Source: Abditibacterium sp. (GTDB lineage: Bacteria; Armatimonadota; Abditibacteriia; Abditibacteriales; Abditibacteriaceae). From it: a stretch of DNA of 64,000 bases. Under the pieces are notes generated by a model. The model did not search any database, was not told the DNA's origin, and saw nothing but the letters and a program-made list of their open reading frames with translations. Below are positions 1 through 63,640 of the stretch, piece after piece; the stretch's first letter is position 1, and each line of letters begins with the position of its first letter. The DNA is taken from NCBI GenBank assembly GCA_965199495.1, contig CBDASK010000003.1, positions 2,624,001-2,688,000 on the forward strand, read 5' to 3'. A program made the translations under genes and the position numbers.

Positions 1-479
1 ATAATCAACGCGCGGGGGGCGTGGCTGCTCCGGCGTTCGATAGTGCGAGCGGGCGCCTTTACTGGAATAATGACGAAGGCGAAATCGCCTGTTTAGATGC
101 TATTACCGGACGCGTTGTCTGGCAAAGTGCTTTGATGTCCAACGCGACGATGAGCGTGATGCTGCGCGCGCGCCCGGTTATTTTTGGCGAAAGCGTGATC
201 GTCGGCGGCAACGACGGCGCCCTGCGCTCGCTCAGCACGAGCGACGGCAAACGCCGTTGGACGACGCTTCTGGACGCGCCGATTCGCGCGCTGGACGCGG
301 CCAAAGTCGGCGGGCAACCCGCGATTTTGGCGACGACCGCACGCGAAATCGTGCTGGTTGATGCAGCCACCGGCACCATTATCGGGCGCGACAAAGGTCA
401 AATGGCGTGGCCGATGCCCAATGGGCAAGGTGGCGTTATCGTCGGCAAAAATGGTAAATGGCGTCGCGTGATTTGGTGA
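1..479 (+). CDS. PQQ-binding-like beta-propeller repeat protein (BamB-like), 5'-truncated by window edge
   Basis: Repeated propeller motifs (CLDAITGRVVWQ, LSTSDGKRRWT, LVDAATG); frame is open back to the window start. Confidence 0.7.
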   Translation, partial: NQRAGGVAAPAFDSASGRLYWNNDEGEIACLDAITGRVVWQSALMSNATMSVMLRARPVIFGESVIVGGNDGALRSLSTSDGKRRWTTLLDAPIRALDAAKVGGQPAILATTAREIVLVDAATGTIIGRDKGQMAWPMPNGQGGVIVGKNGKWRRVIW

Positions 480-501
480 AAATAAATCGGGTCGAAATAA
501 A

Positions 502-533
502 AAAGAATAGAACCGATACCGGTTCTATTCTTT
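502..533. terminator. Probable bidirectional intrinsic terminator
   Basis: AAAGAATAGAACCG-ATAC-CGGTTCTATTCTTT perfect hairpin between convergent genes. Confidence 0.75.
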
Positions 534-542
534 CGCTTTGGA

Positions 543-878
543 TTACGCGTTTTTACTCTCTAATTCGGCGCGCATTTTTTCGATTTCCAATAGTAATTTG
601 AAAACTACCTCGACGCCCGCCAGATTAACACCCAAATCCTGCGTTAAATGTTGAATTTTGCGCACACGTTCGATGTCGGCTTCGGTGAATAAGCGCACGT
701 TGTTATCGGTGCGTTGCGGCGCGATTAACCCCATTTTTTCGTAGGTTCGCAGCGTCTGCGGATGGGTTTCGACCATCTCGGCCACGACCGAAATATAATA
801 AAAAGCGCTTTCTTCCTGCGCGTTTGCTTTTGCTTGCGCTGTGCCCTTTTCGTCGGAGTTTGTGTTGGCTTCGCGCAT
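543..878 (-). CDS. hspR: Heat-shock repressor HspR (MerR family)
   Basis: YYISVVAEMVETHPQTLRTYEKMGLIAPQRT...LTQDLGVNLAGV; last gene of dnaK-dnaJ run; GAGGTG RBS. Confidence 0.9.
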   Translation of the reverse strand: MREANTNSDEKGTAQAKANAQEESAFYYISVVAEMVETHPQTLRTYEKMGLIAPQRTDNNVRLFTEADIERVRKIQHLTQDLGVNLAGVEVVFKLLLEIEKMRAELESKNA

Positions 879-905
879 AATTTATCACCTCTGGGGAATT
901 AAAAA

Positions 906-1979
906 TTAGTTCAGACTTTTCGGCAAATGCGAGCGCACATCGTCGGGGCGGAGCGCCGTTAATTCTTCGATTAACTCGGTTTCACGCTCGGTCAAATCTT
1001 TGGGCACGGCGATTTTAATTGTCACCATTTCGTCGCCCGCGTTGCCGCTTTTGGGTTGAATTCCGCGTCCGCTCAACCGAAAGGTTTGGCCGCTTTGCGT
1101 GCCCGCCGGGATTTTCAAAGTGACAGTTCCATCCATCGTCGGCACGGGAATTTGCGCTCCCAGCGCGGCTTCGGCAAACGAAACCGGCACCTCGATTTTG
1201 AGGTTGTTGCCGTCGCGCTTCCAAAACGGATCGGAGCGCACGTTGACGGCCAAATACATATCGCCGTTTGGCCCGCCGCTCGAAGACGACGCGCCCTTGC
1301 CGCTGACTTTTACGCGCGTGCCGCTCGAAACTCCGGCGGGAATTTTTACCGTGACATCACGTTTTTCTTCGCGCCCGTCGTCGCTGCGGATAATCAAGTT
1401 CAAACGTCTTTGCGTGCCCTTGACCGATTCAGCGAACGAAATATCCACCGGTTGCTCGACATCGCCGCCTTTTTGTGGGCCGCGCCGCGCGTTGTTGCCG
1501 CCGCCACGAAAATTGCCGAACAATTCGTTGAACAAATTGCCGCCTTCGCCCTGACTTTGCTGTCCGCGCGCCCCACCGAAACCGCCCGGCATGCCGCCGC
1601 CACGCCCGCCGCTCTGCGCCTGTTGCGCCTGGCGTAGCAATTCTTCGATATCAATGCCGCCCGCGAAACCGCCAGCGCCGGGTTGTCCGCCGGGGTAGCC
1701 ACCGCCATAACCGCCGCCCGATGATGGGCCGGGGCCGCCGGTGTAGCCGGGCGGAATTTTGTCGAAATCTTCGCCCCACTGGTCGTAGAGTTTGCGTTTG
1801 TCGGGGTCGGATAAGACCTGAAACGCTGCGCTAATCTCTTTGAATTTGGCCTCGGCGTTGGGATTATTGGGGTTCACGTCCGGGTGAAACTCGCGCGCCA
1901 ATTTCCGATAAGCGCTTTTAATCGCCTTTTCGTCCACGTCGCGCGCCACTCCGAGCGTCTTGTAAAAATCTTTGGCCAT
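906..1979 (-). CDS. dnaJ: DnaJ-class co-chaperone without zinc finger (type II/CbpA-like)
   Basis: J-domain with HPD, G/F-rich linker, C-terminal domain, no CxxCxGxG repeats; start placed at MAKDFY. Confidence 0.9.
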   Translation of the reverse strand: MAKDFYKTLGVARDVDEKAIKSAYRKLAREFHPDVNPNNPNAEAKFKEISAAFQVLSDPDKRKLYDQWGEDFDKIPPGYTGGPGPSSGGGYGGGYPGGQPGAGGFAGGIDIEELLRQAQQAQSGGRGGGMPGGFGGARGQQSQGEGGNLFNELFGNFRGGGNNARRGPQKGGDVEQPVDISFAESVKGTQRRLNLIIRSDDGREEKRDVTVKIPAGVSSGTRVKVSGKGASSSSGGPNGDMYLAVNVRSDPFWKRDGNNLKIEVPVSFAEAALGAQIPVPTMDGTVTLKIPAGTQSGQTFRLSGRGIQPKSGNAGDEMVTIKIAVPKDLTERETELIEELTALRPDDVRSHLPKSLN

Positions 1980-1985
1980 TTTAGT

Positions 1986-2089
1986 AAGTAGCAAGGGACA
2001 AGGAGCAGGGGACAAGGTGGGGCGAATGAAGCGAACTCATAAAGTTGCGATTTCCATTCCTGTTCCCTGCTCCTTGTCCCTTGCTACTT
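1986..2089. repeat. Intergenic palindrome with heptamer-repeat arms
   Basis: 25-bp perfect inverted repeat (1986-2010 / 2065-2089) built of AGCAAGG/GACAAGG/AGCAGGG units. Confidence 0.85.
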
Positions 2090-2094
2090 GCGCC

Positions 2095-3966
<1,872 letters not shown>

Positions 3967-12447: not shown

Positions 12448-13452
12448 TTATTTCTTGCGTAACAAAAGCGCCAACGCGCCCAACGCCGCGCCCCAGCCCA
12501 ATGCGGTGCGAACCGACGGATGCGTTTCCAGCCACGTCCCGACGCTGCTGCCGCGCGCGCCCTCGAAATCGCCCTGCACGCGCGTATCGCCGGTATCCGA
12601 CGAGAACAGATTATCGGGCGCATTTTCCGATTTTGGTTCTTCGGTTTTCTGCATTTGGAACGACGTTTTACGCAACGCCAAATCCACCAAATGCGGCGCG
12701 ATGCGATTCATCAGCGCCAGCATCACGCCGCCGCCACCAACGATAATTTCGGGAATCGGTTTTTGTGCCGCCGCCGCAATTGCATGGGCCACGATTTCGG
12801 GCTGATACATCGGCGGCACCGCGACCGGCTTCACGCCGATTTTGGTGCGCGCGTTGCTAAAAAACGGCGTGTTAATGCCGCTTGGCATAATGTTGGTCAC
12901 GCTCACGGGGATGTCGTCGTGATCGAGTTCGATGCGCAATACATCGAGATAGGCTTTCATGCCGTGCTTGGCCGAACCATACGCCGCCTGAAACGGAATG
13001 CCGACCAGAGCTTCGACCGACGAGACCTGAATCAGGGCGCCGTGGCTGCTCTTGAGGTGCGGCAGCGCCACCATCGCGCCCCACGCGGCGCCGATTTGCG
13101 TCACTTGAATCACGCGCTGGTATTCTTCGGGCGTCGTATCGTCAAAACGCGCATACATCGCGGCGGCGGCGGTGTGAATCCATGTGTCAATGCGGCCCCA
13201 CTTCTCGACAGCGACGCGCGCCACGTTTTCGATTTGGTCGTAATGCGTCACATCCGCAGCCACGGCGAGCGCCTGTCCACCCGCGCGCTCGATTTCTTCG
13301 ACGAGTTCGTCCAATGCCTCTTGGCGGCGTGCGGCGACAACAACGCGCGCGCCCTGTTTTGCCATCAATAAAGCCGTCGCGCGCCCGATGCCCGAAGTCG
13401 CGCCCATCACGACGGCGACCTGTTCTTCGATTGGTTTGAGTTGGAGTTTCAT
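12448..13452 (-). CDS. Short-chain dehydrogenase/reductase
   Basis: GATSGIG and YGSAK motifs. Confidence 0.9.
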   Translation of the reverse strand: MKLQLKPIEEQVAVVMGATSGIGRATALLMAKQGARVVVAARRQEALDELVEEIERAGGQALAVAADVTHYDQIENVARVAVEKWGRIDTWIHTAAAAMYARFDDTTPEEYQRVIQVTQIGAAWGAMVALPHLKSSHGALIQVSSVEALVGIPFQAAYGSAKHGMKAYLDVLRIELDHDDIPVSVTNIMPSGINTPFFSNARTKIGVKPVAVPPMYQPEIVAHAIAAAAQKPIPEIIVGGGGVMLALMNRIAPHLVDLALRKTSFQMQKTEEPKSENAPDNLFSSDTGDTRVQGDFEGARGSSVGTWLETHPSVRTALGWGAALGALALLLRKK

Positions 13453-13497: not shown

Positions 13498-16400
13498 CTA
13501 CCACTCTTCGTCGCCCGGCGACCAAGTGTCGGTCGCGCCCCAACGATCAAAGGGCCAATCGCGGCGTTCTGCTTTATCGGCGATCAGATATTGTCCGATT
13601 TTGCGGCGCACTTCGAGCGACCAGAAATTGTCTTCGCCGCGCGGAATCTGGCGCGCCATTTCGAGCGCGCGCGAACCGTCGGCGGCGCTCATGGCGCGCG
13701 CGATGGGCGCCAGACTTTGGCCATCGTTGCTGGCCAAACGCGAACTCCATTCGCGTTCGAGTTCGAGGCGCGCCGCGCTCGCATCGGCGCGCGCCAGATA
13801 AAACGCGTAGGGCGGCCAAAAACCGCTGCGATTATAATTATCCGAGTTGGCGCCCCGCACTCGCGCGAGTTCAAACAGTTCGCGGCCCAATTTTGGGTCG
13901 CTCTCGAACGCCTGCGCTGCGAAACGCGGCGTGGCGTTGACATCGCCAATCGTGACGGCTTCGCGCCACAAATCAGCAGCCACGGCGGGCGTTTGGAACG
14001 GCGCCACGAGCGCCAAAGCGCGTGCGCGGTCACTGTTAGCCGAAATGCGCCGCACTAATTCCAGCGCACTCGCCGGGTCTTTGGCCGCCAACAACGGCGC
14101 GATGCGGCGCGCGCTCACGTCAAAAGCGTATTGCGGCACGTTTTGCATCGAGTGATCGTTATCATTGCCGAAATCGGGTGTGGGTTTTTGGGCCAACTGT
14201 TCCAATAGCGCCAGCGCCGCCTCGACGCCGCGTTTGCGCGCGACAACGGGAATCGCTTTGCCCAAAGCCGCCACGTCGTCGCCCACTTCGGGCGAGATGT
14301 TGACCAGCAAATGCTGCAACAACGCCAGGTTACCCTGCGCCACGATTTCCGCCGCGCTCGCCAGACTTCCATCGCGGCCCGTGGTGTAATAACCGTCTTT
14401 GGTGTAATTTTTGGGGCCGTGACTTTTGAGCGTCAGCGCAATCGCTTTGTCCAGCGCCGCCGCGCCCGCCGCTTCGCCGCGCGCTTGTTCGGTTGCGACC
14501 GCCACGCGATACAAATTCCATTCGCGCGATTGAATATCGGTCGCCGTGCGCGCCATGATTTCGTCGGCGACGCTCAAAGCGCGCTCGCTGACCGCTTTAT
14601 CGTCGCCAACCGCGATGGCGGCGTCGAGCCACGCGCTCAGACGCACTTCGGGGTCTTGAATGCCGCGCGCGACCGATTCGATTTGCCCACTGCGGTTGTC
14701 GGCGCCAAGTTTGGGCGCCCATTTCATCAACTGTGTGTAAAGCGAATAATCGTGATTGGGCGTCGGTGGCTCCTGCGCCGCGCCTTGCAATTGGGCGAAA
14801 GTCTCGCCTTCGGCTGCGTTGAGTTGTCCCAAAACCCAACTGCGCGCGTAAAACTTGTCGTCGTTACCCGTTTCGTTGATAATCTCGCGCCACGCGTCGC
14901 GCCCCAGTTCGACATCCGTCGTCTGCGCCTTCATCGGCGCCAATTCGATTTTGATCGGCGCGTCATCCGCCGCAATCGCGCTGCCAAAATTTCCGTCGCG
15001 GGCCGCGTAAACCGTCACTGCGCCCGCAGGCAAATTTTTGAAACTGAACTGGCCCGTCGCATCAGCCACGGCGTCGCGGCCCGCCGCGACTACGCGCGCG
15101 CCGGGCGAAGTCGTGCCTTCGATTTTGCGGTCGAGCGCCGTCAAGACGATGTCGCTGGCCTTCCAATTGGCGCCGTCCGCCGCAATCTCGCCGCCTTCGA
15201 CGAACGAGTAACCAGCGGCCTTGATCGTGATTTTCAAGCCGCGCGCCATTTCGCTCGGTTTTTCGCCCGCGCGAATGCGGTCGAACTGGTAATTTCCGTT
15301 TGTATCGGTCGTGGCCGTCAGCGAACTGTCGAGCAAGCCGTTATCGCCCGCCTTGAAATAAAAATCGGCCTTGACTTCGACGCCCGCGCGCGGCGTGCCA
15401 TCGGGCGCCACGACGCGCCCCCGAAGCGTGTGCCACGGGCGCAGTTCCACTTGAACGACATACAGTTCTTTCGATGGCACTTCCAAATTGGCGCCCGACG
15501 TAATCTCGTAATAGCCCGCGTCGCTGTCGCCGCCCGCCAGATTAACCGTGCGTAACGATTCGGGTTCATAGCTCCATTTGCCCTGCGCGTCGCTCTGGAT
15601 ATTTTCCTGAAAGCCGCCCCAAACGCGCAGTTGCGCTTGCACCGGCTGATTTTTCTCATTCACGATAACGCCGGTCAACACCGGTTTGGCGGGCAAATCG
15701 AAGATAACATCGGGCGTTTTTTCGTCAACGTTCAGCGTTTGTTGAATGCCGCTCGAAACGTAAGCATCGGGCGTTGTCCAAAACTGAAACGTGTTCTGCC
15801 CCGGCAAAACGCGCACGGAAAAACGGCCATCGGCGCCAGTCAATTCGCTCTGACTACGCGTGTCGCCGCCGCCGTCCGGCCCGAAAATTCCGCCGATTTG
15901 CGCGCCCTGAAGCGGCTTTTGCGTCGCGGCGTCGCGCACCAGACCTTTGACGACCAATGTTTCGACGGCCTGCAAAGTTGGCACGGGATTGGTCTGACCG
16001 ACCTGCGCCAAAACGTTCTTTTGCGCGGGCACCAAATAATCGGCGTCATCGGGAATGCTGGCGCCCACGTTGTAAGTGCCCGCGCTCAGGTTATCAATGG
16101 TGAATTTGCCTTCGTCGTCGGTTTCTCCGTCGCCGCCGCCCACGCTCATGCGGTCGGAACTGCGCGCATAAACGCGCGTTTTGGGAATTGGTTTGCCATT
16201 CAATCCCAGCAATTGTCCGCTCAAAAGCGCGCCCGGCTTCAAAACGAGCGTCGCGGGCGTTTCGGCGTTCAGGTCTTGACCGCTAATTGCCGCGAACCGT
16301 GGCGCCGTGGCTGAGTAAGAGAACGTGCCGCCAACGGGCAAACCCGCGATTTCAAAACCGCCATCGGCGCCCGCTGTGGCGCTATAAATCTCGCTCAATT

Positions 16401-16986: not shown

Positions 16987-18240
16987 ATGTCCGCTTCACC
17001 GCTTCGCGCGTTTGGTTCGCGCCAACGCAAAAATCCTTACGAAGGTCGCGGCGATACGCGCAAGCGCCGCAAATTCAAAGAGCAAACGCGCGAATTGCCG
17101 CACTTGCCCGGCGTCTACTTCTTCTACGGTCACGACGACCGTTTGCTTTACATCGGCAAAGCCAAGCGCTTGCGCGAACGCGTGCGCAGTTACTTCTCCG
17201 ACACATCGTTGCCGCGCCCGCCGAAAATTCGGCGTTTGTTGGCCGAAATCACGCGCTTCGAGACGCATCGCGTCGGCTCCGATTTGGAAGCGCTCTTACT
17301 CGAACGCCGCTTGATCGCCGAGCGCCAACCGCTTTTGAATCGGCAACACAAACGGTTCGAGGTTTATCCGTATTTGTTGTTATCGGACGAAGAATTCCCG
17401 CGATTGACCATCACGCGCGCGCAACCGATTGAAGGTGAAACCGATAAAGAAACCAACTTGATTTTGCGCGAAATCAGCGAAGGAATGCGCGAAACGCGCC
17501 CGCTCGAAACGCCGCGCGCGGGCGACGTGGCTGGCTTGTATCTCGGCCCATTCACCACGCCGCGCCACGCGTATTGGGCGTTGGATGCCGTCGTCAAACT
17601 GTTTCCTCTCCGTTCGTGCGCCGAGTTTTCGGTGAGCGAGAAAAACGTCGGCTGTTTCTATCGCGAAATTGGGCGTTGTTGCGGCCCGTGTATCGGCCAG
17701 ACTTCGCGCGAACAATACGGCGCGTTGTGCGACGATTTGGTCAAGTTGCTCGAAACCGGCGAAGCGCCGCAGTTGGACGCATTGAAACTGCGCATGGCGA
17801 AGTTGGCCGAAGACTGGAAGTTTGAGGAAGCTGCTGTCGTCAAAGAACAGATTGGGGCATTGGAACAAGTCGCCACGCGTTTGCGCCGACTGGCGCGGAT
17901 GCGGCGCGAGAACAACGCGGTCATCGCGCAACCGGGATTAATCGAGAACACGACGGCGCTGTTTTTGGTGCGCGGCGGCGCGGTGCGGCGCCATTTGGTT
18001 GTTGGCGCCGATGATGCAGCCACGGCGCGGCGGGCGATTCGCGAAACCTTTGAAGGCGCGTGGGAAGCGCGCCAATTCACCGCCAAAACCGAGTTGGACG
18101 AAATGATGATCATTGACCGGTGGCTGCGTTCGCACGGCGATGAAATGGGCGTCGCGTGGATGAACGATTTGAGTTCGCGCAACTGGGTCAGCAACGCGAT
18201 GCGGCGCGTTTTGACGGCGAATTTCGAGGATGGGAAATGA
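16987..18240 (+). CDS. UvrC/Cho-like GIY-YIG nuclease with UVR domain
   Basis: PGVYFF..LLYIGKAKRLRERVRSYF, ALLLE..LI....P.LN, Cys cluster, M..LAE...FEEAA; no recognisable RNaseH/HhH C-terminus. Confidence 0.85.
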   Translation: MSASPLRAFGSRQRKNPYEGRGDTRKRRKFKEQTRELPHLPGVYFFYGHDDRLLYIGKAKRLRERVRSYFSDTSLPRPPKIRRLLAEITRFETHRVGSDLEALLLERRLIAERQPLLNRQHKRFEVYPYLLLSDEEFPRLTITRAQPIEGETDKETNLILREISEGMRETRPLETPRAGDVAGLYLGPFTTPRHAYWALDAVVKLFPLRSCAEFSVSEKNVGCFYREIGRCCGPCIGQTSREQYGALCDDLVKLLETGEAPQLDALKLRMAKLAEDWKFEEAAVVKEQIGALEQVATRLRRLARMRRENNAVIAQPGLIENTTALFLVRGGAVRRHLVVGADDAATARRAIRETFEGAWEARQFTAKTELDEMMIIDRWLRSHGDEMGVAWMNDLSSRNWVSNAMRRVLTANFEDGK

Positions 18241-18887: not shown

Positions 18888-20801
18888 ATGTCCGATCAAA
18901 ATCTCGATTCTCTGCAAAAAGATAGCGAAATCTTTTATCCGTCGCAAAAGGCGTTGGATGCCGCCATCGTCACCGATTTCGACGCGTTACGCGAAGAGGC
19001 CAACGCCGATCCCGCCGCGTTTTGGGACAAGCAGGCGCGCGAACTCAAATGGTTTCGGCAGTGGAAAAAGACCGTCGAATGGCAAACCGATCCGCCCAAA
19101 GTCGAATGGTTTGTTGGCGCCGAATGTAATATCACGCTGAACGCTTTGGATCGCCACGTCGAAGGCGGCAAGCGCAACAAAGTCGCGTTTATCTGGGCCG
19201 CCGAAGAGGGCGATGCCAAAGTTAAAGAGCGCAAAATGACCTACGGCGAACTATTGCGCCGCGTCAATCAATGCGCCAACGCTTTGAAAAATATGGGCGT
19301 CCAAAAGGGTGACCGCGTTACGCTTTACATGGCGCTGACGCCCGAACTGCCGATCGCGATGCTCGCGTGCGCGCGCATCGGCGCGATTCACTGCGTGGTT
19401 TACGCCGGGTTTTCGGCGCCCGCGCTGCGACAGCGCATCGAAGATTCGGGTTCTAAAGTCGTGATTTGCACCGATTTGAGTTATCGGCGCGGCAAACGCG
19501 TGGATTTGAAGGGCATCGTGGACGAAGCCACGCGCGGTTTGAACATGGTCGAGGATATTTTAGTTTTCCGCCGTGGCCATACTCCGCTCGAACTCGTCGA
19601 GCCGCGCGAGAAAGATTGGGACGAGACGTTAGATGCGCAATCGGACAAGTGCGCCCCGGAAGTTTTGGATTCGGAAGCGCCCCTGTTTTATCTTTATACG
19701 TCGGGCACGACCGGCAAGCCCAAAGGCATCGTTCACGTTCACGGCGGCTACATGGTCGGCACCAGCTACACCCAGCGCATCGCGTTCGATATGAACGACG
19801 ATGATATATTTTTCTGCACCGCCGATCCGGGCTGGATTACCGGGCATTCTTATGTCGTTTACGGCCCGCTCATTAACGGCGGCACGGTTTTATTGGCCGA
19901 AGGCGCATTGGATTATCCCGACGCCGGGCGTTGGTGGAGTTTGATTCAAAAATACGGCGTGACGATTTTCTATTCGACGCCAACCGCGATTCGCGCCTTG
20001 ATGCGTTTCGGCGAAGAGTTTCCGGCCAAATACGATTTAAGTTCGTTGCGCGTTTTGGGCACCGTCGGCGAGCCGATTAACCCCGAAGCGTGGCTGTGGT
20101 TTCATAAAAATATCGGCAACGGTGAATGTCCAATTATTGATACGTGGTGGCAAACCGAAACCGGCCAGTTCATGCTGGGCACGGTGCCTTCTTATCCGGC
20201 CAAACCGGGCAGTCCGGGCAAACCGTTTCCCGGCATCGTCGCCGATGTCGTGGACAAACAGGGCAACTCGGTCGAAGACGGCAAAGGCGGATTTCTGGTC
20301 ATCAAAAGCGTGTGGCCCGCGATGATGCGCACGATTTCGGGCGACGTAGATCGCTATAACAACTATTGGGAATTGATTCCCGGTATGTATGCGGCGGGCG
20401 ACGTGGCCACGCGCGATGCCGATGGCTATTTCCGCGTCATGGGCCGCGCCGACGACGTGTTGAACGTGTCGGGCTACCGCATCGGCACCGCCGATGTCGA
20501 AAGCGCTTTGGTTTCGCATCCCGCCGTGGCCGAAGCCGCCGTCGTGGGCAAACCCGACGAGTTGAAGGGCGAAAGCATCAAAGCGTTCATCATTTTGCGC
20601 GAAGGACAAAGCGGCGACGATAAATTGGTCGCGGCCCTGCGCGCGCACGTTCGCGCCGAACTGTCGCCAATTGCGATGCCGTCGGAAATCGAGTTCGTCG
20701 AGAGTTTGCCCAAAACGCGTTCGGGCAAAATCATGCGCCGCGTTTTGAAAGCGAAAGAGTTGGGCGTCGAACCGGGCGATGTTTCGACGCTGGAGGATTA
20801 G
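18888..20801 (+). CDS. acs: Acetyl-CoA synthetase
   Basis: YTSGTTGKPKG, WITGHSY, DTWWQTETG, LPKTRSGKIMRR. Confidence 0.97.
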   Translation: MSDQNLDSLQKDSEIFYPSQKALDAAIVTDFDALREEANADPAAFWDKQARELKWFRQWKKTVEWQTDPPKVEWFVGAECNITLNALDRHVEGGKRNKVAFIWAAEEGDAKVKERKMTYGELLRRVNQCANALKNMGVQKGDRVTLYMALTPELPIAMLACARIGAIHCVVYAGFSAPALRQRIEDSGSKVVICTDLSYRRGKRVDLKGIVDEATRGLNMVEDILVFRRGHTPLELVEPREKDWDETLDAQSDKCAPEVLDSEAPLFYLYTSGTTGKPKGIVHVHGGYMVGTSYTQRIAFDMNDDDIFFCTADPGWITGHSYVVYGPLINGGTVLLAEGALDYPDAGRWWSLIQKYGVTIFYSTPTAIRALMRFGEEFPAKYDLSSLRVLGTVGEPINPEAWLWFHKNIGNGECPIIDTWWQTETGQFMLGTVPSYPAKPGSPGKPFPGIVADVVDKQGNSVEDGKGGFLVIKSVWPAMMRTISGDVDRYNNYWELIPGMYAAGDVATRDADGYFRVMGRADDVLNVSGYRIGTADVESALVSHPAVAEAAVVGKPDELKGESIKAFIILREGQSGDDKLVAALRAHVRAELSPIAMPSEIEFVESLPKTRSGKIMRRVLKAKELGVEPGDVSTLED

Positions 20802-21474: not shown

Positions 21475-22389
21475 TCACGACACCATAACGGGCGTCGCGC
21501 TTGTGCGCTGCGAATTCATCGCGTAAATCGTCGCGCCCAGAATAATCGCGCCACCGAATAAAGTGCGCGGGCCGGGAATTTCGTGGAGAATAATCGCGGC
21601 CAAAATCAGGCCGTAAATCACTTCCATGCCCGAATTGATGAGGCTCGCCAAGCGCGCCGAAACTCCGCGCATGCCGCGCAAGAACAGCAGTTGCGCGCCG
21701 CCGGTGAAAACGATGCCCAACCACGCCAACAACGTTAAATCGTGCGGCGTGACTTTGGGGCGCATTATCCAGACGGCGGGCAACAACAAGAGCGCGACGA
21801 TGCCCATCTGGTAAAACGTGATGATAAGCGGCGAATAGTGCGCGACTTGCTGGCGATTGAGTAAGGTCAAAAACGCCAGCGCCAGACCCGACGCCAAGCC
21901 CCACAAAATGCCCTGCGTTGCCGAATTATCCAAATTCCATGACGGCGTGGCTACAGCCACGCCGACCGTGACGATGATGGCGACGAGGACATTGCGCGCT
22001 TTGAGCGATTCGGCGGGGAAGAAAAGCGGCTCCAATAACGCGATGAGAACGGGCGCGGTTGAGAACGAAATCAAGCAAATCGCGACGTTCGAGACCTGAA
22101 TCGAAGTGAAAAACGCGATCCAGTGCGCGGCCAACAAAATTCCCAGTAATAAAAGCGGCCCGAAATCGCGGTGACGTTTTAATTTGACGTTGCGGCGCGA
22201 GAAAAACATCAGCAACGCGACGCCGACGAAAGCGAACGAGACGCGCCCAAACACGATGACGAGCGGCGAAAGCGAGAGCCATTTTCCAAACAATCCGGTG
22301 AAGCCGAACAGCAAAACCGCCAGATTGAGTTGCAGCAAACTTTGTTTATATGCGCCCGAAACGTGAATTTTCACGCTTCGTAGTCTCAC
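21475..22389 (-). CDS. EamA/DMT family transporter
   Basis: About 10 TM helices in two EamA repeats; start uncertain. Confidence 0.85.
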   Translation of the reverse strand: MRLRSVKIHVSGAYKQSLLQLNLAVLLFGFTGLFGKWLSLSPLVIVFGRVSFAFVGVALLMFFSRRNVKLKRHRDFGPLLLLGILLAAHWIAFFTSIQVSNVAICLISFSTAPVLIALLEPLFFPAESLKARNVLVAIIVTVGVAVATPSWNLDNSATQGILWGLASGLALAFLTLLNRQQVAHYSPLIITFYQMGIVALLLLPAVWIMRPKVTPHDLTLLAWLGIVFTGGAQLLFLRGMRGVSARLASLINSGMEVIYGLILAAIILHEIPGPRTLFGGAIILGATIYAMNSQRTSATPVMVS

Positions 22390-32617: not shown

Positions 32618-35200
32618 ATGCGAAAATTCATTCCTCTTCTGGCGTTCGTCGCCATCGTGCTTCCGGCGCGCGCGCAGACCGTTCTCAAGCAAACTTTGCC
32701 CAACGGCCTCACCGTTTTGGCGACGCCAGATCACGCCGCGCCCGTCGTGGCTGTGCGCGTTTATGTGCGCACCGGCTCGATTTACGAAGGCAAATATTTG
32801 GGCGCCGGTCTGTCGCATTTGTTTGAACACACGCTGTTCGAGGGCACGAAAACCCGCGATAAAGTCGTCATCAACGACGAGTTGCAGGCGATTGGCGGCC
32901 AATCGAACGCTTACACTTCTTACGATGTGACGGCTTACCACGTCACGACAGCCAAGCCTTATTTCGCGCGCGCGACCGGCATCTTAGCCGACATGATGCG
33001 CAACGCGACCTTTCCCGAAGCCGAAGTCAAAGTGCAGCAGGGCGTCATTCACAACGAGATGAACTTGGGCGAGGACAACCCGGATCGTGCCGTTTCAGAA
33101 CTGTTCGACCAGACCGCGTTTCGCGTGCATCCGGCGCGCTATCCGGTCATCGGTTATCCGGCACAATTCGATGCGCTTACGCGCGACGACATCCTGAGTT
33201 ATTACAAATCGCATTACACGCCCGATAACGCCATTGTTTCGGTTGCGGGCGATGTGGACGCCAAAACGATTTTTGCTACGGTGAATAAAGAGTTCGGCGA
33301 CTGGCAACGCGGCGCCGCGCAAACGCCGGTTTTGCCGACAGAACCGCCGCAAAGTTCGCCGCGCACTGCGACCGAGCAGATGCCGGTGAACCTGACTTAT
33401 CTGCAAATGGGCTGGCACACGATTCCCTTGCAAAACCCCGATTTGTATGCGCTCGATACGCTCTCGCAAATCTTTGGCGGCGGCGATTCGAGTCGCCTGC
33501 AACTCGAAATTTTGCAGCGCCGCAATTTGGTCAATTCCATCTCGTCGTATTCGGCTACGCCCAACTACGATGCTGGCGTTTTCGCGGTTTCGGCGACGAT
33601 GCCGCCCGCCAACTTGGCTAAAGTCGAAGCGGCTATCAAAACTCAAGTCGCGCTGATTAAGAAAAATGGCGTGACCGACGCCGAATTGGCGCGCGCCAAA
33701 CGGCAAATCAAAACCGCGTTCGCCTTTGGCAAAGAGGATGTCGAAAGCCTCGCCGAGCAGGCCGCCTTCGACGAAATGGGAACCGGCGATCCCAACTATT
33801 CCAAACGCTACGTCGCCAATATCGAGAAAGTCAGCGCCGCGCAGGTCAAGCAAATGGCGCTCAAATACTTAAAAGATGACGGTTTAACGACGGCTGTTGT
33901 CGAGCCGAAAACGGAAAACAAGCCAGCGGCAGTAGCAGCCACGGCGCCCAAACAAACAATTGGCGCGCCGACTTTGACGGTCTTGCCCAACGGCGTAAAG
34001 TTATTAGTGCGCCCCAATCCGCTCAATCCAACGGTTTCGATTGTCGCGGCGGGGCTAGGCGGTTTGCGCCTCGAACCCGCCGACAAAGCGGGCCTCGCCT
34101 CGCTGACGGCGAGTCTGCTGACGCGCGGCACGACAAAGCGCAGCGCCGAACAAATCGCCGAATTGGTGGACGATTTGGGCGGCAGTTTTGATAGCATTTC
34201 GGGCCAAAACTCGTGGGTGATGCAGAGCCAGTGGCTCAAAGAAGATTGGCAGCGCGGCCTAAACCTAACCGCCGAATCGTTGCTGACGCCAACATTTCCG
34301 GCTGATGAGTTTGCCAAAGAAAAAGCGCAATTCGTCAGCGCGATTGGCGCGCAGGAAGACGACCCGATGGACGCCGCCGCGCTCGAAATGCGCCGCCTCT
34401 ATTTTGGCGATCATCCCTATGGTCGCCCGACGACCGGCACTTTAAAAACCATCGAGAAATTGACGCCTGCCGATGCGGCCAATTATTGGAAGCGCGTTTT
34501 GCAGCCGCAAAATACCGTCGTCGCGGTTTATGGCGATGTCAAACCCGCCGATGTCGAGAAGTTGACGGCTTATCTGCTGGGCAACTTCAAGGCGCGGGGC
34601 GAGAAATTAGCCGCGCCGCCCGCACCCAAAATTCCGGCCAAAATGCTCGAACGCGACATCAGCAAAATGGGCGTCACGCAAACCGCGATGTGGTATGGTT
34701 TTCCGGCGATTAACATCGCTAATCCCGACCGCTACGCCATTGACGTGTTGGACGCGGCGATGTCGGGCGCCGATTTGCCGGGCGGACGCGTCTTCGCCAA
34801 ACTGCGTGACGCCGAATTGGTTTACGTTTATCACGCCTACGATGCGCCCGGCCTCGATCCCGGCGTCTTCGTGATGTATGCGGCCACGACCAAGGAAAAC
34901 GCGCCCAAAGCGCGCGCGGTTATTGACGAAGAAATCCAGAAAGTGCGCGATACTCAGATTTCACCCGCCGAATTGGAACGCGCCAAATCGATGATGATTT
35001 CGGAGCAAGCCATTGACCTGCAAAGCAACTCTTCTCAGGCGCTGAGTGACGCGACCAACGAGTTATATGGTTTGGGCTATCGCAAAGACGAAGATTACGC
35101 CGCGAAAATCAACGCGGTTTCGTTGGCGGATGTGCAACGCGTCGCGCAGAAATATCTGACGCCAGAACATAGCGTTTTGGCGATTGTCGGACCGAAATAA
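32618..35200 (+). CDS. Secreted M16 (pitrilysin-type) zinc peptidase
   Basis: Signal peptide; HLFEH inverted zincin motif; duplicated M16 halves. Confidence 0.92.
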   Translation: MRKFIPLLAFVAIVLPARAQTVLKQTLPNGLTVLATPDHAAPVVAVRVYVRTGSIYEGKYLGAGLSHLFEHTLFEGTKTRDKVVINDELQAIGGQSNAYTSYDVTAYHVTTAKPYFARATGILADMMRNATFPEAEVKVQQGVIHNEMNLGEDNPDRAVSELFDQTAFRVHPARYPVIGYPAQFDALTRDDILSYYKSHYTPDNAIVSVAGDVDAKTIFATVNKEFGDWQRGAAQTPVLPTEPPQSSPRTATEQMPVNLTYLQMGWHTIPLQNPDLYALDTLSQIFGGGDSSRLQLEILQRRNLVNSISSYSATPNYDAGVFAVSATMPPANLAKVEAAIKTQVALIKKNGVTDAELARAKRQIKTAFAFGKEDVESLAEQAAFDEMGTGDPNYSKRYVANIEKVSAAQVKQMALKYLKDDGLTTAVVEPKTENKPAAVAATAPKQTIGAPTLTVLPNGVKLLVRPNPLNPTVSIVAAGLGGLRLEPADKAGLASLTASLLTRGTTKRSAEQIAELVDDLGGSFDSISGQNSWVMQSQWLKEDWQRGLNLTAESLLTPTFPADEFAKEKAQFVSAIGAQEDDPMDAAALEMRRLYFGDHPYGRPTTGTLKTIEKLTPADAANYWKRVLQPQNTVVAVYGDVKPADVEKLTAYLLGNFKARGEKLAAPPAPKIPAKMLERDISKMGVTQTAMWYGFPAINIANPDRYAIDVLDAAMSGADLPGGRVFAKLRDAELVYVYHAYDAPGLDPGVFVMYAATTKENAPKARAVIDEEIQKVRDTQISPAELERAKSMMISEQAIDLQSNSSQALSDATNELYGLGYRKDEDYAAKINAVSLADVQRVAQKYLTPEHSVLAIVGPK

Positions 35201-40711: not shown

Positions 40712-41998
40712 TTATTTCGTTGGGCGCCGCCATTTGGCCGCGAACATTCCATCGGCGCCGTCGCGATGCGGCCACGTCTGCAACCAACCTTCTTCTGTTT
40801 GAACGTCTTTCATCCAATCCGGTGCGCGCTCGATTGTCCAACCGCTGCGCTGCGTAAACGCTCGCGCTTGCTCGACGTTTTCTTCGGGTTCGAGCGAACA
40901 CGTCGAATAAATTAGAGCGCCGCCGGGCACAACCAATTTTGCGGCGGCGTCCAATAGTTCGCGTTGCAATTCGACCAATTCGGCCAAGGCTTGCGGCGTT
41001 TTGCGCCATTTCGCGTCGGGGCGACGGCGCAAAGTTCCCGTTCCCAGACACGGCGCGTCGAGCAACACCAAATCGGCGGGTTCGCCGTGGCTGCTCGTGT
41101 CGCGGACATCGGCGGTTTGAACGCGCATGATCGAAATGCCCAAACGCGCCGCGTTTTCGCGCACCAATTTCAGCCGTCCCGGCGCGATGTCCACGCATTC
41201 GATGCGCCCGCGATTCTCCATCAACTGCGCGCAGTGCGTCGCTTTGCCGCCGGGCGCTCCGGCCAAATCCAATATGCGTTCGCCCGCAAGGGGCGCGGCG
41301 TAATATGCGACCAACTGCGCGGCTTCGTCCTGCACGAAAAACTCGCCGTCGTTCCAGCCGGGTAACTGCGTCGGGGCGCCGCCATCGAGCGTTATCGCGT
41401 CGGGCGATAATTGGCCCGCGCGCGCATTGGGCAAACGCGCGAGCAATGCGTCGCGCGAAATTTTCAGCGTATTGGCGCGCAAACACAAAGGCGCGCGCTG
41501 ATTATTGGCGTCCAACAATTGTCGCGTTTGCTCGGCGCCCAAATTTTTAATGTAGCGTTGCACCAGCCACTGCGGATGCGAAAATTCAATCGCCAACTGT
41601 TGCGGCAAATCGGCGGGCGCCGCGCGCCATTGCGCGGGAATGCGCCGCGCGACGGCGTTGACGAAACCGACCGCCGATTCCTTGCGCTCGTCACGCATCA
41701 AGCCCGCGTATTCGCCGACAAATCCGTGCGGCGGCGTGTTTAACACTAACTTTTCGTAAGCCGCCAAACGCAAAGCCGCGCGCACGGACGCATCGAGTTT
41801 GGCGATTGGTTTGGATAAAAGCGGTTGCAGCGTCCAGTCCAATTTGGCGCGATTGCGTTGCGTGCCCGAATAGATTTCGCGTGCAAAAGGGCGCACACCC
41901 GCGTTCAAATCGCGAAAATCGGGCGCGACCATATCGTTACTTTCGGAGCGCATCAGCGCGCGGAGCGCCATTTGTCGCGCGGCAGTTTTTGGGTGCAT
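40712..41998 (-). CDS. rsmB: 16S rRNA m5C967 methyltransferase
   Basis: NusB-like N-terminus; VQDEAAQ, APGGK, LLDAPC, YSTCS...EEN. Confidence 0.95.
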   Translation of the reverse strand: MHPKTAARQMALRALMRSESNDMVAPDFRDLNAGVRPFAREIYSGTQRNRAKLDWTLQPLLSKPIAKLDASVRAALRLAAYEKLVLNTPPHGFVGEYAGLMRDERKESAVGFVNAVARRIPAQWRAAPADLPQQLAIEFSHPQWLVQRYIKNLGAEQTRQLLDANNQRAPLCLRANTLKISRDALLARLPNARAGQLSPDAITLDGGAPTQLPGWNDGEFFVQDEAAQLVAYYAAPLAGERILDLAGAPGGKATHCAQLMENRGRIECVDIAPGRLKLVRENAARLGISIMRVQTADVRDTSSHGEPADLVLLDAPCLGTGTLRRRPDAKWRKTPQALAELVELQRELLDAAAKLVVPGGALIYSTCSLEPEENVEQARAFTQRSGWTIERAPDWMKDVQTEEGWLQTWPHRDGADGMFAAKWRRPTK

Positions 41999-43293: not shown

Positions 43294-44226
43294 TTAATTT
43301 TCACCAAGTCCAAACTTTCCGCCAACTTCTAATCTCGCGCCGCGTGCCCAATCTGCCGCGTTCATACGCGGTTTGCCGGGCGCTTGCACTTCCAACAGTT
43401 GAACCGACCCAGCCGCCGTGGCTACTATCGGCCCGGCCTTATCCAATTCTAAAATCGTGCCCGTTTCACCCACTTTATCGGCGATTCGCGCGCGATATAT
43501 TCTGAGCGGCGCGCCGCCAAACTCACAAAACGCGACAGGCCACGCGCTCCACGCGCGCGCAGTGTTGACGATGCACTCGGCGCTCATCGTCCACTCTATT
43601 TTGGCGTCGTCTTTCTCGATTTGCGGCGCCAGCGTCACTTCACTTTCATTCTGTGGCACGCGCGGCGCGGTTCCGCTTTCGAGCATCGCGAACGTTTCGA
43701 CCAAAACGCGCGCGCCGATTTCGTTCAAGCGCGGAAACAGTTCGTCGGCGGTTTCGCCGTTTTCAATCGGAACTTCGACTTGCTGGATAACATCGCCCGC
43801 GTCCAACTTCGCCGCCATCCATTGCGTCGTCACGCCAGTTACGGTGTCGCCGTTCCAAATCGCGTATTGGACGGGCGCGGCGCCGCGCCAACGCGGCAAA
43901 AGCGAATAATGCAAGTTGACGCAGCCACGCGGCGCCATGTCCAAAATCGCTTGCGGCAAAATCTGGCCGAACGCCACAACGGCAATCGCATCGGGCGCAA
44001 ACGCGGCGAGTTCTTCGATAAATTCTTCATCGCGCGCGCGCCGTGGCTGCAAGACGGGCACGCCGATTTCGAGCGCGCGTTGTTTAACCGGCGGCGCGAT
44101 AAGTTTATGGCCGCGCCCGCCGATTTTATCGGGCTGACTCACAGCCACGGCGATCTGGTGATGCTGCGCGAGCGCGTCCAGACACGGCATGGCGAGGGCG
44201 GGCGTGCCCATAAATGCGATTTTCAT
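43294..44226 (-). CDS. fmt: Methionyl-tRNA formyltransferase
   Basis: MKIAFMGTP, SQPD, NLHYSLLPRWRGAAP, LDAGD. Confidence 0.95.
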   Translation of the reverse strand: MKIAFMGTPALAMPCLDALAQHHQIAVAVSQPDKIGGRGHKLIAPPVKQRALEIGVPVLQPRRARDEEFIEELAAFAPDAIAVVAFGQILPQAILDMAPRGCVNLHYSLLPRWRGAAPVQYAIWNGDTVTGVTTQWMAAKLDAGDVIQQVEVPIENGETADELFPRLNEIGARVLVETFAMLESGTAPRVPQNESEVTLAPQIEKDDAKIEWTMSAECIVNTARAWSAWPVAFCEFGGAPLRIYRARIADKVGETGTILELDKAGPIVATAAGSVQLLEVQAPGKPRMNAADWARGARLEVGGKFGLGEN

Positions 44227-59630: not shown

Positions 59631-59661
59631 AACGCCAATTATCTCTAAATTTTCAACTTGG

Positions 59662-59700: not shown

Positions 59701-59760
59701 ATTAAGTAGATTTTAAACATTGATGTAAAATCACTGCTTCGGTTCACTCGTGCCTAACGT

Positions 59761-60906: not shown

Positions 60907-60918
60907 TGGGAATTGATT

Positions 60919-61350: not shown

Positions 61351-61461
61351 TTTGGCAACTTACGGCAAATTTGGGAGCGAATTTGATGAGTTGACACAAA
61401 ACGCCACGTTGTTTAAATAAAAGTGTATTGCGGTATGATTTCTGCCAATAAACCGGGCGTT

Positions 61462-61704
61462 ATGAATCCCGATCCGACCAAAGCAACCAACACGCAAGAT
61501 ACCGGCACCGACGGCCTGAAATTCGATTTGCCGCCCGGTCAAACGCCCGGCGAAGGTCTGGGCACCGGCCAAACCGGCATGAAAAATTTCAACGCCGACG
61601 AGCCAAAGAAAGAAGCCGACGAGTCCGACTGGAACGCAGCCACGGGCGACGGACAAAAGAGCGAAGAAGTCTCAACGCGCGATCAAGACAACTCGACGGT
61701 TTAA
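61462..61704 (+). CDS. Small acidic, low-complexity hypothetical protein (80 aa)
   Basis: Host-like codons; followed by a strong terminator. Confidence 0.6.
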   Translation: MNPDPTKATNTQDTGTDGLKFDLPPGQTPGEGLGTGQTGMKNFNADEPKKEADESDWNAATGDGQKSEEVSTRDQDNSTV

Positions 61705-61707
61705 AGG

Positions 61708-61746
61708 AAAAAGCGCGGATGCCGTGAAAAGCATCCGCGCTTTTTT
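61708..61746. terminator. Bidirectional intrinsic terminator
   Basis: AAAAAGCGCGGATGC-N8-GCATCCGCGCTTTTTT. Confidence 0.85.
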
Positions 61747-61770
61747 GTGTGAATCTCAATCGAGAACCAT

Positions 61771-61788
61771 TGGTGGAGAACGGCGGAC
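61771..61788 (-). other. Possible tRNA-Ala/tmRNA 3'-end fragment (att-like scar)
   Basis: Minus strand GT-CCGCC-GTTCTCC-A-CCA. Confidence 0.35.
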
Positions 61789-61846
61789 AACAAAGCAACA
61801 TCAGTCTTCCTTAGCCGCAACACTTCGAAAATATGCGAACGAAATT

Positions 61847-62344
61847 TCAGTTTGGCTCAAACGGCGCAAAATTCGGCTCCCAAGTGGCGATTTGGGCCAG
61901 AGATTCCTTCAATCGGCTGAAGAGTTTGCGATCTTTCTTGAGGATAAGTTCAGGTTTCGTGTAAATTAAAGCGTGAGCCGCGTTAGGCGGAATTCTTTTC
62001 AGAAGTGGATCGGCTCTGACATCAACGACGCGAATATCAGCGGCCTGTCCATCACTTATTCTCGTTACCGTTCCAATGGCACGCACGGCACGCGTTTGCA
62101 AACAGCAAATATAATCAGTCGTTTCGACTTGTGAGTGCGAGGCATCGTGAGCGCACTTACTCGCGCGGTCAACAGAAATTTGGTAGCTTGGATCTAAAAA
62201 AGCATCGGTCGTGGTTTTGAGTTGACCATCGCGCCATTCAATCCGTTTCAAACCATGCTTCACAGCACGATAAAGTAATTCGTCGTCGCCGACGTTTCCC
62301 TCATCAGTATGGGATTCATCCCCAGAAATCGCTGCTTTGCCCAT
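61847..62344 (-). CDS. Hypothetical protein, putative ADP-ribosyltransferase-fold toxin
   Basis: DDELLYR ... AF ... ISVDR ... DP ... NAAHALI pattern; last gene of the three-gene module. Confidence 0.6.
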   Translation of the reverse strand: MGKAAISGDESHTDEGNVGDDELLYRAVKHGLKRIEWRDGQLKTTTDAFLDPSYQISVDRASKCAHDASHSQVETTDYICCLQTRAVRAIGTVTRISDGQAADIRVVDVRADPLLKRIPPNAAHALIYTKPELILKKDRKLFSRLKESLAQIATWEPNFAPFEPN

Positions 62345-62375
62345 AGATAATAAACCTTCCGTTACTCAGGCGCTT

Positions 62376-62876
62376 TTATATGTGTAACCAATTCCACAAC
62401 AAGCGGACTTGATTGGTGTTTTCAATATCTCCGTCTTCCATTTCATCAATGAGATGTGGCCCCCAAACTTTGAGGTATTCAACAGCTTCGGGCGTGATAT
62501 AAAGCGTAAGTTTGTGCGTGCCCTGCCACCATTCGAGCGAAACATTGCCTTCTTCGTCGGAAGAAATATAAGGTTGGCGCCATTCATACCGCGTGGAATC
62601 CACCGTCGCAAACATTTGGGGAATCCAACGAATGGCCGCATCAATGGCATCGCCATTGGGAGCGGGTGCATTATGCCCATCCCATCCGGTTTGTCTTGCG
62701 CGCAAGTCGCGAATTTTGCGCAAAGTCGCCAGCAACGCACTCTGAAAATTACGTTGAATTGTCGCCGGTGTTTGCGGCTGGTAAGCGTAATTCTCCTGGC
62801 GGATGTTATAGCTAATGCGCGCGGGCGTCTGTTTGCGCGCGGGTTCTGGCGGCGTGGCTACAAATGATAAAAGCAT
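62376..62876 (-). CDS. Conserved hypothetical protein (GWDG...P.....G.V.LEW type), putative antitoxin
   Basis: TAATG overlap with the upstream gene. Confidence 0.7.
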   Translation of the reverse strand: MLLSFVATPPEPARKQTPARISYNIRQENYAYQPQTPATIQRNFQSALLATLRKIRDLRARQTGWDGHNAPAPNGDAIDAAIRWIPQMFATVDSTRYEWRQPYISSDEEGNVSLEWWQGTHKLTLYITPEAVEYLKVWGPHLIDEMEDGDIENTNQVRLLWNWLHI

Positions 62877-63640
62877 TAGCGGATGATCTCCCTGAGTTTT
62901 TCGGTGATGCTGCTTTCAAAAAGCAGATTCTTACGGACGCGCAACGCCTCCAGATACTCCCACATTTGCTCTTCTTGGCCGGATGGCCAGGGAGAAGCAG
63001 AGCGATCTTGCGATAAGTCGAAATCCAGAATAATTGAAGCCTCATTCTCGCTGGTTGGCGGAGATGCTGCTGTGTTGACAATCAAATCGCATTCCAAATC
63101 GGTTTGCCGCAGTTGCAACTGCATAAAGTAACCGTTCATTGCGCTGGTTGAAGCGTCGAAGGCGGCTCTTGGCATAATTTTCAGATAATCGTCGAGAACG
63201 ATATCTTTATGAAAGTCCATTGGCGTCGCGATTTGGTTGATGTAGCGCAGAGCCACGCGCGTCACGCCTTCAAAAGGGTAGAGCGCGCGGTAGTCGTTCC
63301 AAACGCGACGGGCTTCATCGCGGAACTGCGACCATCGTCCATAAGGCGCGCGCCGACTGAAAGTGAACCCGTCCAGACGCGCCTGAAAACGTTGATGCTC
63401 GTCTTTTTGAGTGAAGACGCAACCGGTGAAATCCTGATGATGCAGAATTTCGAGTTCGTCGCCCAATTCCCCCGCTTCAACGTCGAGTTGAAAACTAAAA
63501 GGTTTGACAATAGTTGATTCTCCTAACGCTTCGCTTAGAGAGTGAAACTTTTCTATGTCGAAATCATTCACGGGAGTTACACGCAAATCTATAACAGCCT
63601 CAATAATGGGCGCTTTGGTGTAGTGAAGTTCGGTGGACAT
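62876..63640 (-). CDS. TIGR04255-type sporadically distributed protein
   Basis: APIIEAVIDLR, PY.RW..F, RVALRYINQI, ILDFD, L..LR..KN..FE..IT. Confidence 0.8.
   Translation of the reverse strand: MSTELHYTKAPIIEAVIDLRVTPVNDFDIEKFHSLSEALGESTIVKPFSFQLDVEAGELGDELEILHHQDFTGCVFTQKDEHQRFQARLDGFTFSRRAPYGRWSQFRDEARRVWNDYRALYPFEGVTRVALRYINQIATPMDFHKDIVLDDYLKIMPRAAFDASTSAMNGYFMQLQLRQTDLECDLIVNTAASPPTSENEASIILDFDLSQDRSASPWPSGQEEQMWEYLEALRVRKNLLFESSITEKLREIIR

Follow-up and report, generated by a model that had tools for sequence, protein, structure and literature searches.

Copies of an asymmetric DNA word with the core CGTGGCT are spaced along the chromosome of Abditibacterium sp. separately on each strand: a copy that lies less than about 1.8 kb from another on the same strand is redundant, and copies on the opposite strand are no substitute. 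The word is under selection, is restricted to one lineage, is excluded from foreign DNA, saturates each strand independently and is set in a helically phased duplex context. It was recognized in a 64-kb stretch of DNA (the window, G000:C3:2624001-2688000); G000 denotes the 4.81-Mb genome carrying the window, and G001-G042 the relatives compared with it. The best reading of the word is that of a lineage-specific polar self-mark, wanted independently for each strand or direction of travel about every 2 kb.

Abundance and form of the word

The window contains 62 copies of the core (30 on the + and 32 on the - strand, compared to 8.3 ± 3.0 in 100 dinucleotide shuffles), exactly as counted in a preliminary description of the sequence. 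The 10-mer GCCGTGGCTG, of which about 23 copies had been claimed, is present 23 times (0.20 in shuffled sequences), and all the core starts that had been named were recovered in the computed list. The copies had been described as almost all genic and as lying in different frames; 57 of the 62 are in predicted coding sequences, and the named peptides are correct: SHG at 13041 in a short-chain dehydrogenase/reductase (SDR) gene and at 41086 in rsmB, QPR at 44042 and RGC at 43923 in fmt, and AWL at 20089 in acs. The core word is real, but its proposed boundaries have to be revised, because the consensus begins one base earlier and allows A at position 3. The revised CGNCGTGGCT fits 47 of the 62 copies, and the GSCGTGGCTRYW proposed originally fits 30. 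A search of the window against Rfam gave no match.

The window is an ordinary slice of a genome-wide set of 4,553 cores and 2,916 copies of CGNCGTGGCT, 2654 of which (91%) are coding. The commonest 10-, 11- and 12-mers of G000 are CGCCGTGGCT, CGCCGTGGCTG and CGCCGTGGCTGC, with 1374, 1051 and 690 copies, respectively. The form CGNCGTGGCTG has 2179 copies, and most single-base mismatches reduce the number to fewer than 100; position 3 is free except for T, and G is tolerated at position 1. The consensus derived from genome-wide mismatch counts and context-corrected base preferences is (S)(S)G-CG[C>G>A]CGTGGCT-G-C-T. In the 3698 genes of G000, called with a custom hexamer model, CGNCGTGGCT occurs 2631 times, compared to 131 after permutation of synonymous codons and 344 after resampling of dicodons. 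It exceeds the synonymous permutation in all six frames, and the ~20-fold excess over codon-preserving shuffles rules out a codon or peptide artefact. The overabundance thereby withstands the codon- and dicodon-preserving shuffling that the preliminary description had named as a check. The replichore skew that it had also named was looked for, and there is none: the strands are even in every 100-kb bin with no local excess of either, which rules out an origin-to-terminus polarity such as that of FtsK-orienting polar sequences (KOPS) or architecture-imparting sequences (AIMS). The chromosome is strongly rearranged relative to that of G004 and lacks GC skew, 4-fold sites included.

Foreign DNA in G000 is poor in the word. 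The small contigs C1 and C2 hold one and two copies, 11 stretches of 20 kb hold no more than four copies each, and hardly any copies lie in a prophage near 4.22-4.26 Mb. Inverted pairs within 30 bp are enriched 2-3-fold, and close same-strand pairs are almost absent. Individual sites of G000 do not form a hairpin, none of the viral contigs carries an inverted pair, and no oriented mutational skew was found around the sites beyond 60 bp.

The sites are conserved in the sister genome G011 (85% identity, 92 kb aligned), where 43 of 57 are fully kept; conservation in relatives and depletion in islands had both been named as checks in the preliminary description. Cores are kept in 74 of 104 cases and control words in 74 of 172, and retention is alike on both strands (35/51 and 35/48). 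In G004, 13 of 97 sites are kept (cores 36/142, controls 86/261). The relatives were sampled in part (12-436 kb each, G041 and G042 being unsampled), and "wordless" refers to the sample. The 11-mer CGVCGTGGCTG is abundant in three of 27 genomes of the family (2113, 1776 and 720 copies), the remaining 24 hold 12-94 copies, and no enrichment was found in 16 more distant genomes. The three word-rich genomes form one clade with 97% RpoB identity and an SH-aLRT support of 100 in a quick RpoB tree of 26 rows, from which G005, G025 and G033 were left out. The word is a real, selected and clade-specific genome signal.

Strand-specific spacing and helical phase

The number of same-strand pairs in G000 rises from 10 to ~95 per 100-bp bin by a distance of 1.8 kb, whereas that of opposite-strand pairs stays near 95. 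The same-strand deficit shrinks roughly linearly with distance until the plateau near 1.8 kb. Same-strand pairs at distances of 60-600 bp number 139, compared to 314 ± 12 in 500 permutations of the strand labels (minimum 276). The ratio of same-strand to opposite-strand pairs at 60-500 bp is 62:283 within genes, 20:39 across co-directional and 4:21 across opposed genes, and 19:62 for pairs with an intergenic site. An effect of one site per gene is ruled out, since the deficit also holds for pairs that span a gene boundary and for intergenic sites. Control words cluster rather than avoid each other. Gaps on one strand have a mean of 2.3 kb and a coefficient of variation of 0.72 (15 low-density windows of 236 dropped). 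When inverted pairs are dropped, the observed and expected numbers at 60-800 bp are 213/567 for same-strand and 629/567 for opposite-strand pairs in G000, and 13/22 and 24/22 in G011. Single copies of the word of G004 give 27/51 and 50/51 at 200-1500 bp, shorter bins being inflated by tandem arrays. Exclusion out to about 0.6-1 kb is also seen for the word of G017 and for those of G014 and G022, which are palindromic.

The DNA uptake sequences (DUS) of Neisseriaceae and the uptake signal sequences (USS) of Pasteurellaceae provided partial controls. The 832 DUS in 738 kb of de-duplicated DUS-bearing metagenome contigs, with loci chosen on inverted pairs, give observed and expected numbers of 264/333 for same-strand and 285/333 for opposite-strand pairs (65/80 and 84/80 for singles only). 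The 247 USS in 468 kb of prophage DNA, from 58 of 80 USS-bearing viral loci, give 36/47 for both classes. In toy simulations of four reading models, only per-strand reading and Chi-like polar reading deplete same-strand pairs alone; orientation-blind uptake depletes all pair classes, and directional uptake affects convergent pairs most.

The flanks of the word are phased with the DNA helix. A/T peaks are located at about -6, -16, -27 and -38 and at +30, +41 and +52, counted from the first C. The amplitude of the 11-bp phase lock is 0.062 on the 5' side and 0.034 on the 3' side, compared to a median of 0.009 for 60 control 7-mers, the highest-scoring of which overlaps the word itself. The lock decays to 0.012 (5') and 0.009 (3') by 200 bp, is repeated in G011 (0.068, n = 92) and scales with the strength of the site from 0.069 to 0.030, stronger variants locking better. 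Near-miss words have amplitudes of 0.005-0.013, and the lock is absent from them. An origin of the 11-bp flanks in amphipathic helices is ruled out, since the signal persists when only 4-fold sites (0.047) or only intergenic DNA (0.076) are considered.

A periodicity of 11.2 bp in A/T extends across the whole chromosome of G000 and is found in several relatives from the genus, equally strong in the wordless G005 and G008; it is absent from C1 and C2 and from samples of genus g6. Within 250 bp of the sites the local 11-bp periodicity is higher (0.040, compared to about 0.030). The locked amplitude is approximately the whole periodic amplitude and its decay is like the autocorrelation of the genome; therefore, the long reach of the phasing appears to be passive and the near lock close to complete. 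Neighbouring sites showed no helical phasing relative to each other (Rayleigh p 0.62, 0.023 and 0.91). The site occupies a fixed helical phase of bendable DNA, chiefly on its 5' side, and because each copy is phase-locked to the A/T periodicity, recognition in bent duplex DNA is implied. The preliminary description had suggested either an uptake sequence or a binding site of a nucleoid or repair protein. The classic form of the former is contradicted by the strand-specific exclusion, which is absent from the DUS and USS controls and is not produced by models of double-stranded uptake, whereas the latter fits better because of the per-strand spacing and the helical phasing.

Words of relatives and candidate genes

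Other members of the family have words of their own. That of G004 is a longer dialect, GGACGTGGCTGGTGTC, found mainly as intergenic inverted pairs. The words of G014 (CTGCAAGTACTTGCAG, 68 copies in 100 kb), G018 (CAAAGTACTTTG), G020 and G024 (TCGAGTACTCGA) and G022 (GAGTACTC) are palindromic, and that of G017 (AGTACGGTCGA) forms singles and pairs. The 17-mer CTTCATTTTTTGTGGAA is hyper-abundant in G001 (75 copies in 93 kb, 0.8 per kb), as singles and inverted pairs with flanks that look phased (n = 35); it is unrelated to the word of G000 and absent from 61 kb of the close sister G008. Inverted pairs in relatives are located in terminator-like hairpins. Samples of G006 and G009 contain only clusters resembling repetitive extragenic palindromes (REP), and samples of 20-100 kb from 13 other genomes showed no word. 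Hyper-abundant words based on AGTAC (L056-L060 in G014, L066-L070 in G017, L097, L100-L102 and L105-L106) are palindromes in five genomes, and that of G017 is a half-site or an inverted pair.

The preliminary description had called for a search for competence genes, and a full set was found in G000: a type IV pilus operon (pilB, pilT, pilC, pilD and minor pilins), comEA, comEC and dprA. The genome also has recA and priA, a single gyrA-family gene and a single dnaG. An intact comEC is located at G000:C3:3065496-3068075 (L120), and ComEC is present in 40 of 41 genomes, including wordless relatives. The nuclease domain of ComEC lacks its metal-binding histidines in G000, G011 and G004, which have the motif TRSDAAH instead of the THADADH of most relatives, and also in the wordless G003; the other aligned relatives keep the histidines. 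According to PMC12455585, the motif is H-X-H-X-D-H, and Streptococcus pneumoniae transforms with an inactive domain. The ComP family PF16732 gave no match in five genomes, yet control genomes gave none either. In G012 the comEC and comEA frames are shorter, and among five genomes checked only this one has an adjacent AddB/AddA-like pair.

Several genes were compared with the distribution of the word and rejected, because they do not separate word-bearing from wordless genomes: Ssn-like GIY-YIG genes, Y1 transposases, an orphan beta-class methyltransferase, the C5 and N6 methyltransferase families, NurA, Prim-Pol, DnaG, PriA, RecA, DprA, ComEC and ComEA. The search for PD-(D/E)xK nucleases in G000 led to a protein encoded in an island and to a Dna2-like fusion. 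The latter, a sporadically distributed 1421-residue nuclease-helicase with PD-(D/E)xK and SF1 helicase domains (G000:C3:4111365-4115630, L209; the G004 copy is at L035:3611-7888), has DNA2 as its best PDB match and only AAA_11/12 and PDDEXK_1 as family matches. Its gene has native composition and holds five word sites, and the protein occurs in three of 13 genomes of the genus, which are the word clade. It is a weak candidate for the reader within the genus.

Other observations concern DNA-processing genes and sites. The orphan beta-class methyltransferase, similar to M.RsrI (G000:C3:1807692-1808396, L189), occurs in 20 of the 25 genomes of the family that were searched and in none outside it. 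GTAC may be its target, because its presence within the genus largely matches a strong depletion of GTAC, with the exception of G004. Small Ssn-like GIY-YIG genes with hairpin repeats of their own alongside are present at G000:C3:3607828-3608181 (L151) and in G004 (L152). Restriction-type sites are strongly avoided in G000: CGGCCG (30 copies, 4733 expected), CTCGAG (40, 4101 expected), GGACC (116, 3497 expected), CTAG and GTAC; this avoidance is family-wide and does not distinguish genomes. The region 2.60-2.84 Mb of G000:C3 contains a repeat ~131 times in the 240 kb sampled, consistent with large CRISPR arrays. Besides the full uvrC, a shorter UvrC-like GIY-YIG protein of 417 residues is encoded on the + strand at window positions 16987-18240, and it is also found in four relatives checked.

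Table 1. Copies of the word in the window
Feature	Position in the window	Strand	Context
Dispersed core CGTGGCT, 62 copies	20..63257	both (30 +, 32 -)	47 fit CGNCGTGGCT; 57 in predicted coding sequences
Full-consensus site CGCCGTGGCTGCT	13038..13050	+	antisense in SDR oxidoreductase gene, encodes SHG
Full-consensus site CGCCGTGGCTGCT	13975..13987	-	sense frame AVA in gene of 1112-residue protein
Weak variant AAGCGTGGCTGTG	20086..20098	+	in acs (AWL); core intact, CG-N prefix missing
Close inverted pair, cores 21946 + and 21955 -	21943..21964	both	inside transporter gene
Full-consensus site CGCCGTGGCTGCT	33934..33946	-	antisense AAT in pitrilysin-family peptidase gene
Full-consensus site CGCCGTGGCTGCT	41083..41095	+	antisense SHG in rsmB
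Four copies in fmt, four reading frames	43414..44152	both	VAT +, RGC -, QPR +, AVA -

Interpretation of the word

The word behaves like a self-mark of the Chi or HIP1 type, belongs to neither of them and departs from DUS and USS in one defining test. The favoured explanation, which is held tentatively and at somewhat less than an even chance, is that the word is recognized in bent duplex DNA by a predicted protein whose action is confined to one strand or one direction, so that the word would serve as a self-mark in recombination, repair or post-uptake transformation. The putative sequence-specific protein, bound to bent duplex DNA, would nick or mark one strand, or would load or stop a strand-tracking helicase-nuclease. 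Self DNA would be passed to RecA, and wordless DNA would not. Such an action may resemble that of Chi or of cyanobacterial HIP1, in the repair of breaks and/or the single-strand step of natural transformation, and would proceed without RecBCD or AddAB. Palindromic words and inverted pairs in relatives could serve both strands together.

Chi is polar, each direction needs its own sites, and its action is linked to RecBCD or AddAB. A polar-stop model reproduces the spacing of the G000 word, which is the signature of a putative polar action needed independently in each direction. The word differs from Chi in being longer, with helically phased flanks and no leading-strand skew, and RecBCD, AddAB and AdnAB were not found in G000, G004 or G014. 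HIP1, the highly iterated palindrome of cyanobacteria, is similarly hyper-abundant and selected inside genes (PMC5861425; 10.1101/2024.09.10.611283; PMC13756078), and the five palindromic words of the family look HIP-like. HIP1 is reported to raise transformation in a Chi-like manner independent of AddAB (10.1101/2024.09.10.611283), a property that the G000 word may share. By contrast, the G000 word is asymmetric, a matching methyltransferase was not found among the families profiled, and the periodicity reported for HIP1 is about 40 kb, rather than an exclusion on the kilobase scale (PMC5861425; 10.1101/2024.09.10.611283; PMC13756078). The NTS repeats read by SsnA in Neisseria are similar in that strand-specific reading modulates transformation; however, they are clustered intergenic hairpins with 2% in genes (PMC11893778), and the Ssn-like gene of G000 has a repeat of its own.

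Several results weigh against the polar self-mark. No reader was found among the gene families profiled. A RecB/AddA-type helicase was not found, since G000, G004 and G014 each have only one UvrD-family gene, and NurA was searched for in G000 and not found. Any gene restricted to the clade would match the distribution of the Dna2-like protein within the genus; moreover, this protein is also present in the wordless G016 and was not found in five of the six word-bearing genomes of other genera. Sites with a close same-strand neighbour are less conserved (29/48, compared to 41/51), and those with an opposite-strand neighbour likewise (31/48, compared to 39/51); because the drop is seen for both orientations, this test did not single out strand. 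A dip in divergence around the sites was looked for and not seen. The word of G001 shows no exclusion, and therefore the words of the family are not all one system. Chi is read on unwound DNA, so that helical phasing is not by itself predicted by a Chi-like reading.

It is unlikely, for the reasons that follow, that the word is a classic DNA uptake sequence, read in the duplex by a protein at the tip of the pilus and spread by molecular drive. DUS, which form dialects (PMC3630211), and USS (PMC7811141, PMC1939737) share with the word a density of about 1 per kb, a non-palindromic and unoriented form, positions in genes in several frames, scarcity in foreign DNA, dialects of clades and inverted pairs in terminators, the last here mainly in relatives. 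The G000 word, at about 1 per 1-1.6 kb, is unskewed and mostly coding, and the genome has the pilus operon and the com genes. In the dialect-shifted G004, the identity of two minor pilins is 55-56%, under that genome's 10th percentile of amino-acid identity (65%); however, pilus genes evolve fast in G011 too (58-62% for two), competence genes are shared with wordless relatives, and the ComEC nuclease domain of the word clade lacks the metal-binding histidines. DNA uptake is reported to be independent of sequence orientation (PMC1939737), and the G000 word does not show the orientation-blind spacing expected of DUS and USS: same-strand-only exclusion is absent from both partial controls, and orientation-blind and directional models also deplete opposite or convergent pairs. 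In addition, the G000 word differs from DUS and USS in its coding fraction of 91% and its long 11-bp phased arms (0.057, compared to 0.020 for DUS and 0.034 for the 3' side of USS), whose period of 11.0-11.2 bp is that of the chromosome itself, and the words of Abditibacteriaceae are mutually unrelated rather than one-letter dialects.

The per-strand spacing could also arise from an asymmetric methyltransferase site marked on one strand only (Type IIG, Type III or MmeI-like), the mark being recognized strand by strand in mismatch repair, in a methylation-dependent step of transformation or by a self-sparing defence nuclease. This explanation, partly compatible with the polar self-mark, is improbable. 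Typical methyltransferase sites are shorter than 10-13 bp, and the information of the word spans 10-13 bp. AGCCAC is the most over-represented hexamer in G000, which has many N6-methyltransferase fusions, and HIP1 and the methylation-dependent transformation of Campylobacter jejuni at RAATTY (10.1101/2024.09.10.611283) offer precedents; however, no profiled family tracks the words (part of the G000 enzymes were profiled), the orphan beta-class enzyme is present in G000 and not in G004, G014 has no C5 enzyme, and G017 has no PF02384 match. Quite improbable is an anchor of chromosome architecture, at which a word-bound protein would position wrapped DNA for gyrase or for a nucleoid or SMC protein. 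The two arms of the flanks are offset by about 2 bp, and at one register both correlate with the Escherichia coli gyrase cleavage motif (r 0.71-0.86; matrix from PMC6379681 Table DS10), which similarly has a centre and two periodic GC/AT arms. The fit is suggestive only; a match of both arms has a chance of about one in four, as estimated from one free phase. The gyrase motif is degenerate and symmetric with a period of 10.75 bp (PMC6379681), whereas the word has a strict asymmetric core and a period of 11.0 bp. The single GyrA-family gene and the stronger periodicity near the sites agree with an anchor, but the periodicity is just as strong in the wordless G005 and G008, and, unless the site is a polar barrier, the handling of supercoils offers no obvious cause of an exclusion confined to the same strand.

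Okazaki fragments are 1-2 kb long, and DnaG primers start with AG followed by about 8 nucleotides. The word might also mark sites of priming or of replication restart, used on both strands of a chromosome that lacks fixed replichores: the length of the exclusion is similar to that of the fragments, GC skew is lacking even at 4-fold sites, and most words of the family read AG and about 8 nucleotides, like the start of a DnaG primer. Nevertheless, this is highly improbable: DnaG is single-copy and ordinary, and differences in its zinc domain do not follow the dialects; PriA is ordinary, and no Prim-Pol was found in G000, G004, G014 or G020; a prophage of tens of kilobases is nearly free of sites; and helical phasing implies recognition of the duplex. 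A decayed or spreading mobile repeat, of the REP type with its transposases (RAYT) or the Ssn/NTS type, is scarcely credible and already largely refuted for G000, despite the intergenic inverted pairs in G004, G017, G001 and G009 and the Y1 transposase matches and Ssn-like gene in G000. Copies in G000 are 91% coding singlets without a hairpin rather than intergenic hairpins clustered near a cognate nuclease gene, the Ssn-like genes are flanked by unrelated hairpins of their own, and counts of Y1 transposases do not track the words (none in G017, 11 in G012).

Bacteria in which hyper-abundant self-words have been described are Neisseriaceae, Pasteurellaceae and cyanobacteria, and HIP1 continues to be called elusive in function (PMC13756078; 10.1101/2024.09.10.611283). 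The literature searched, with subscription journals and bioRxiv supplements outside the search, contained no report of strand-specific exclusion and none of a word of this kind in Abditibacteriaceae. The asymmetry of the word allows strand logic to be read directly from the sequence. Comparing same-strand with opposite-strand spacing is a cheap test that can be used on any such word and separates surface-uptake from per-strand models. It is possible, although doubtful, that Abditibacteriaceae have a hitherto undescribed class of chromosome signals in which a rapidly exchangeable word of 10-16 bp, set in wrapped duplex, is served by a putative reader acting on one strand. Such words would form two independent ~2-kb lattices on a chromosome without replichore polarity and replace RecBCD and Chi in self/non-self processing, and the asymmetric dialect of G000 would expose a per-strand logic hidden in palindromes such as HIP1. 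The family unites closely related genomes with an asymmetric, a palindromic or a paired word and genomes with none, which makes it a natural experiment, and the polar self-mark, if true, points to a new sequence-specific DNA-processing protein.

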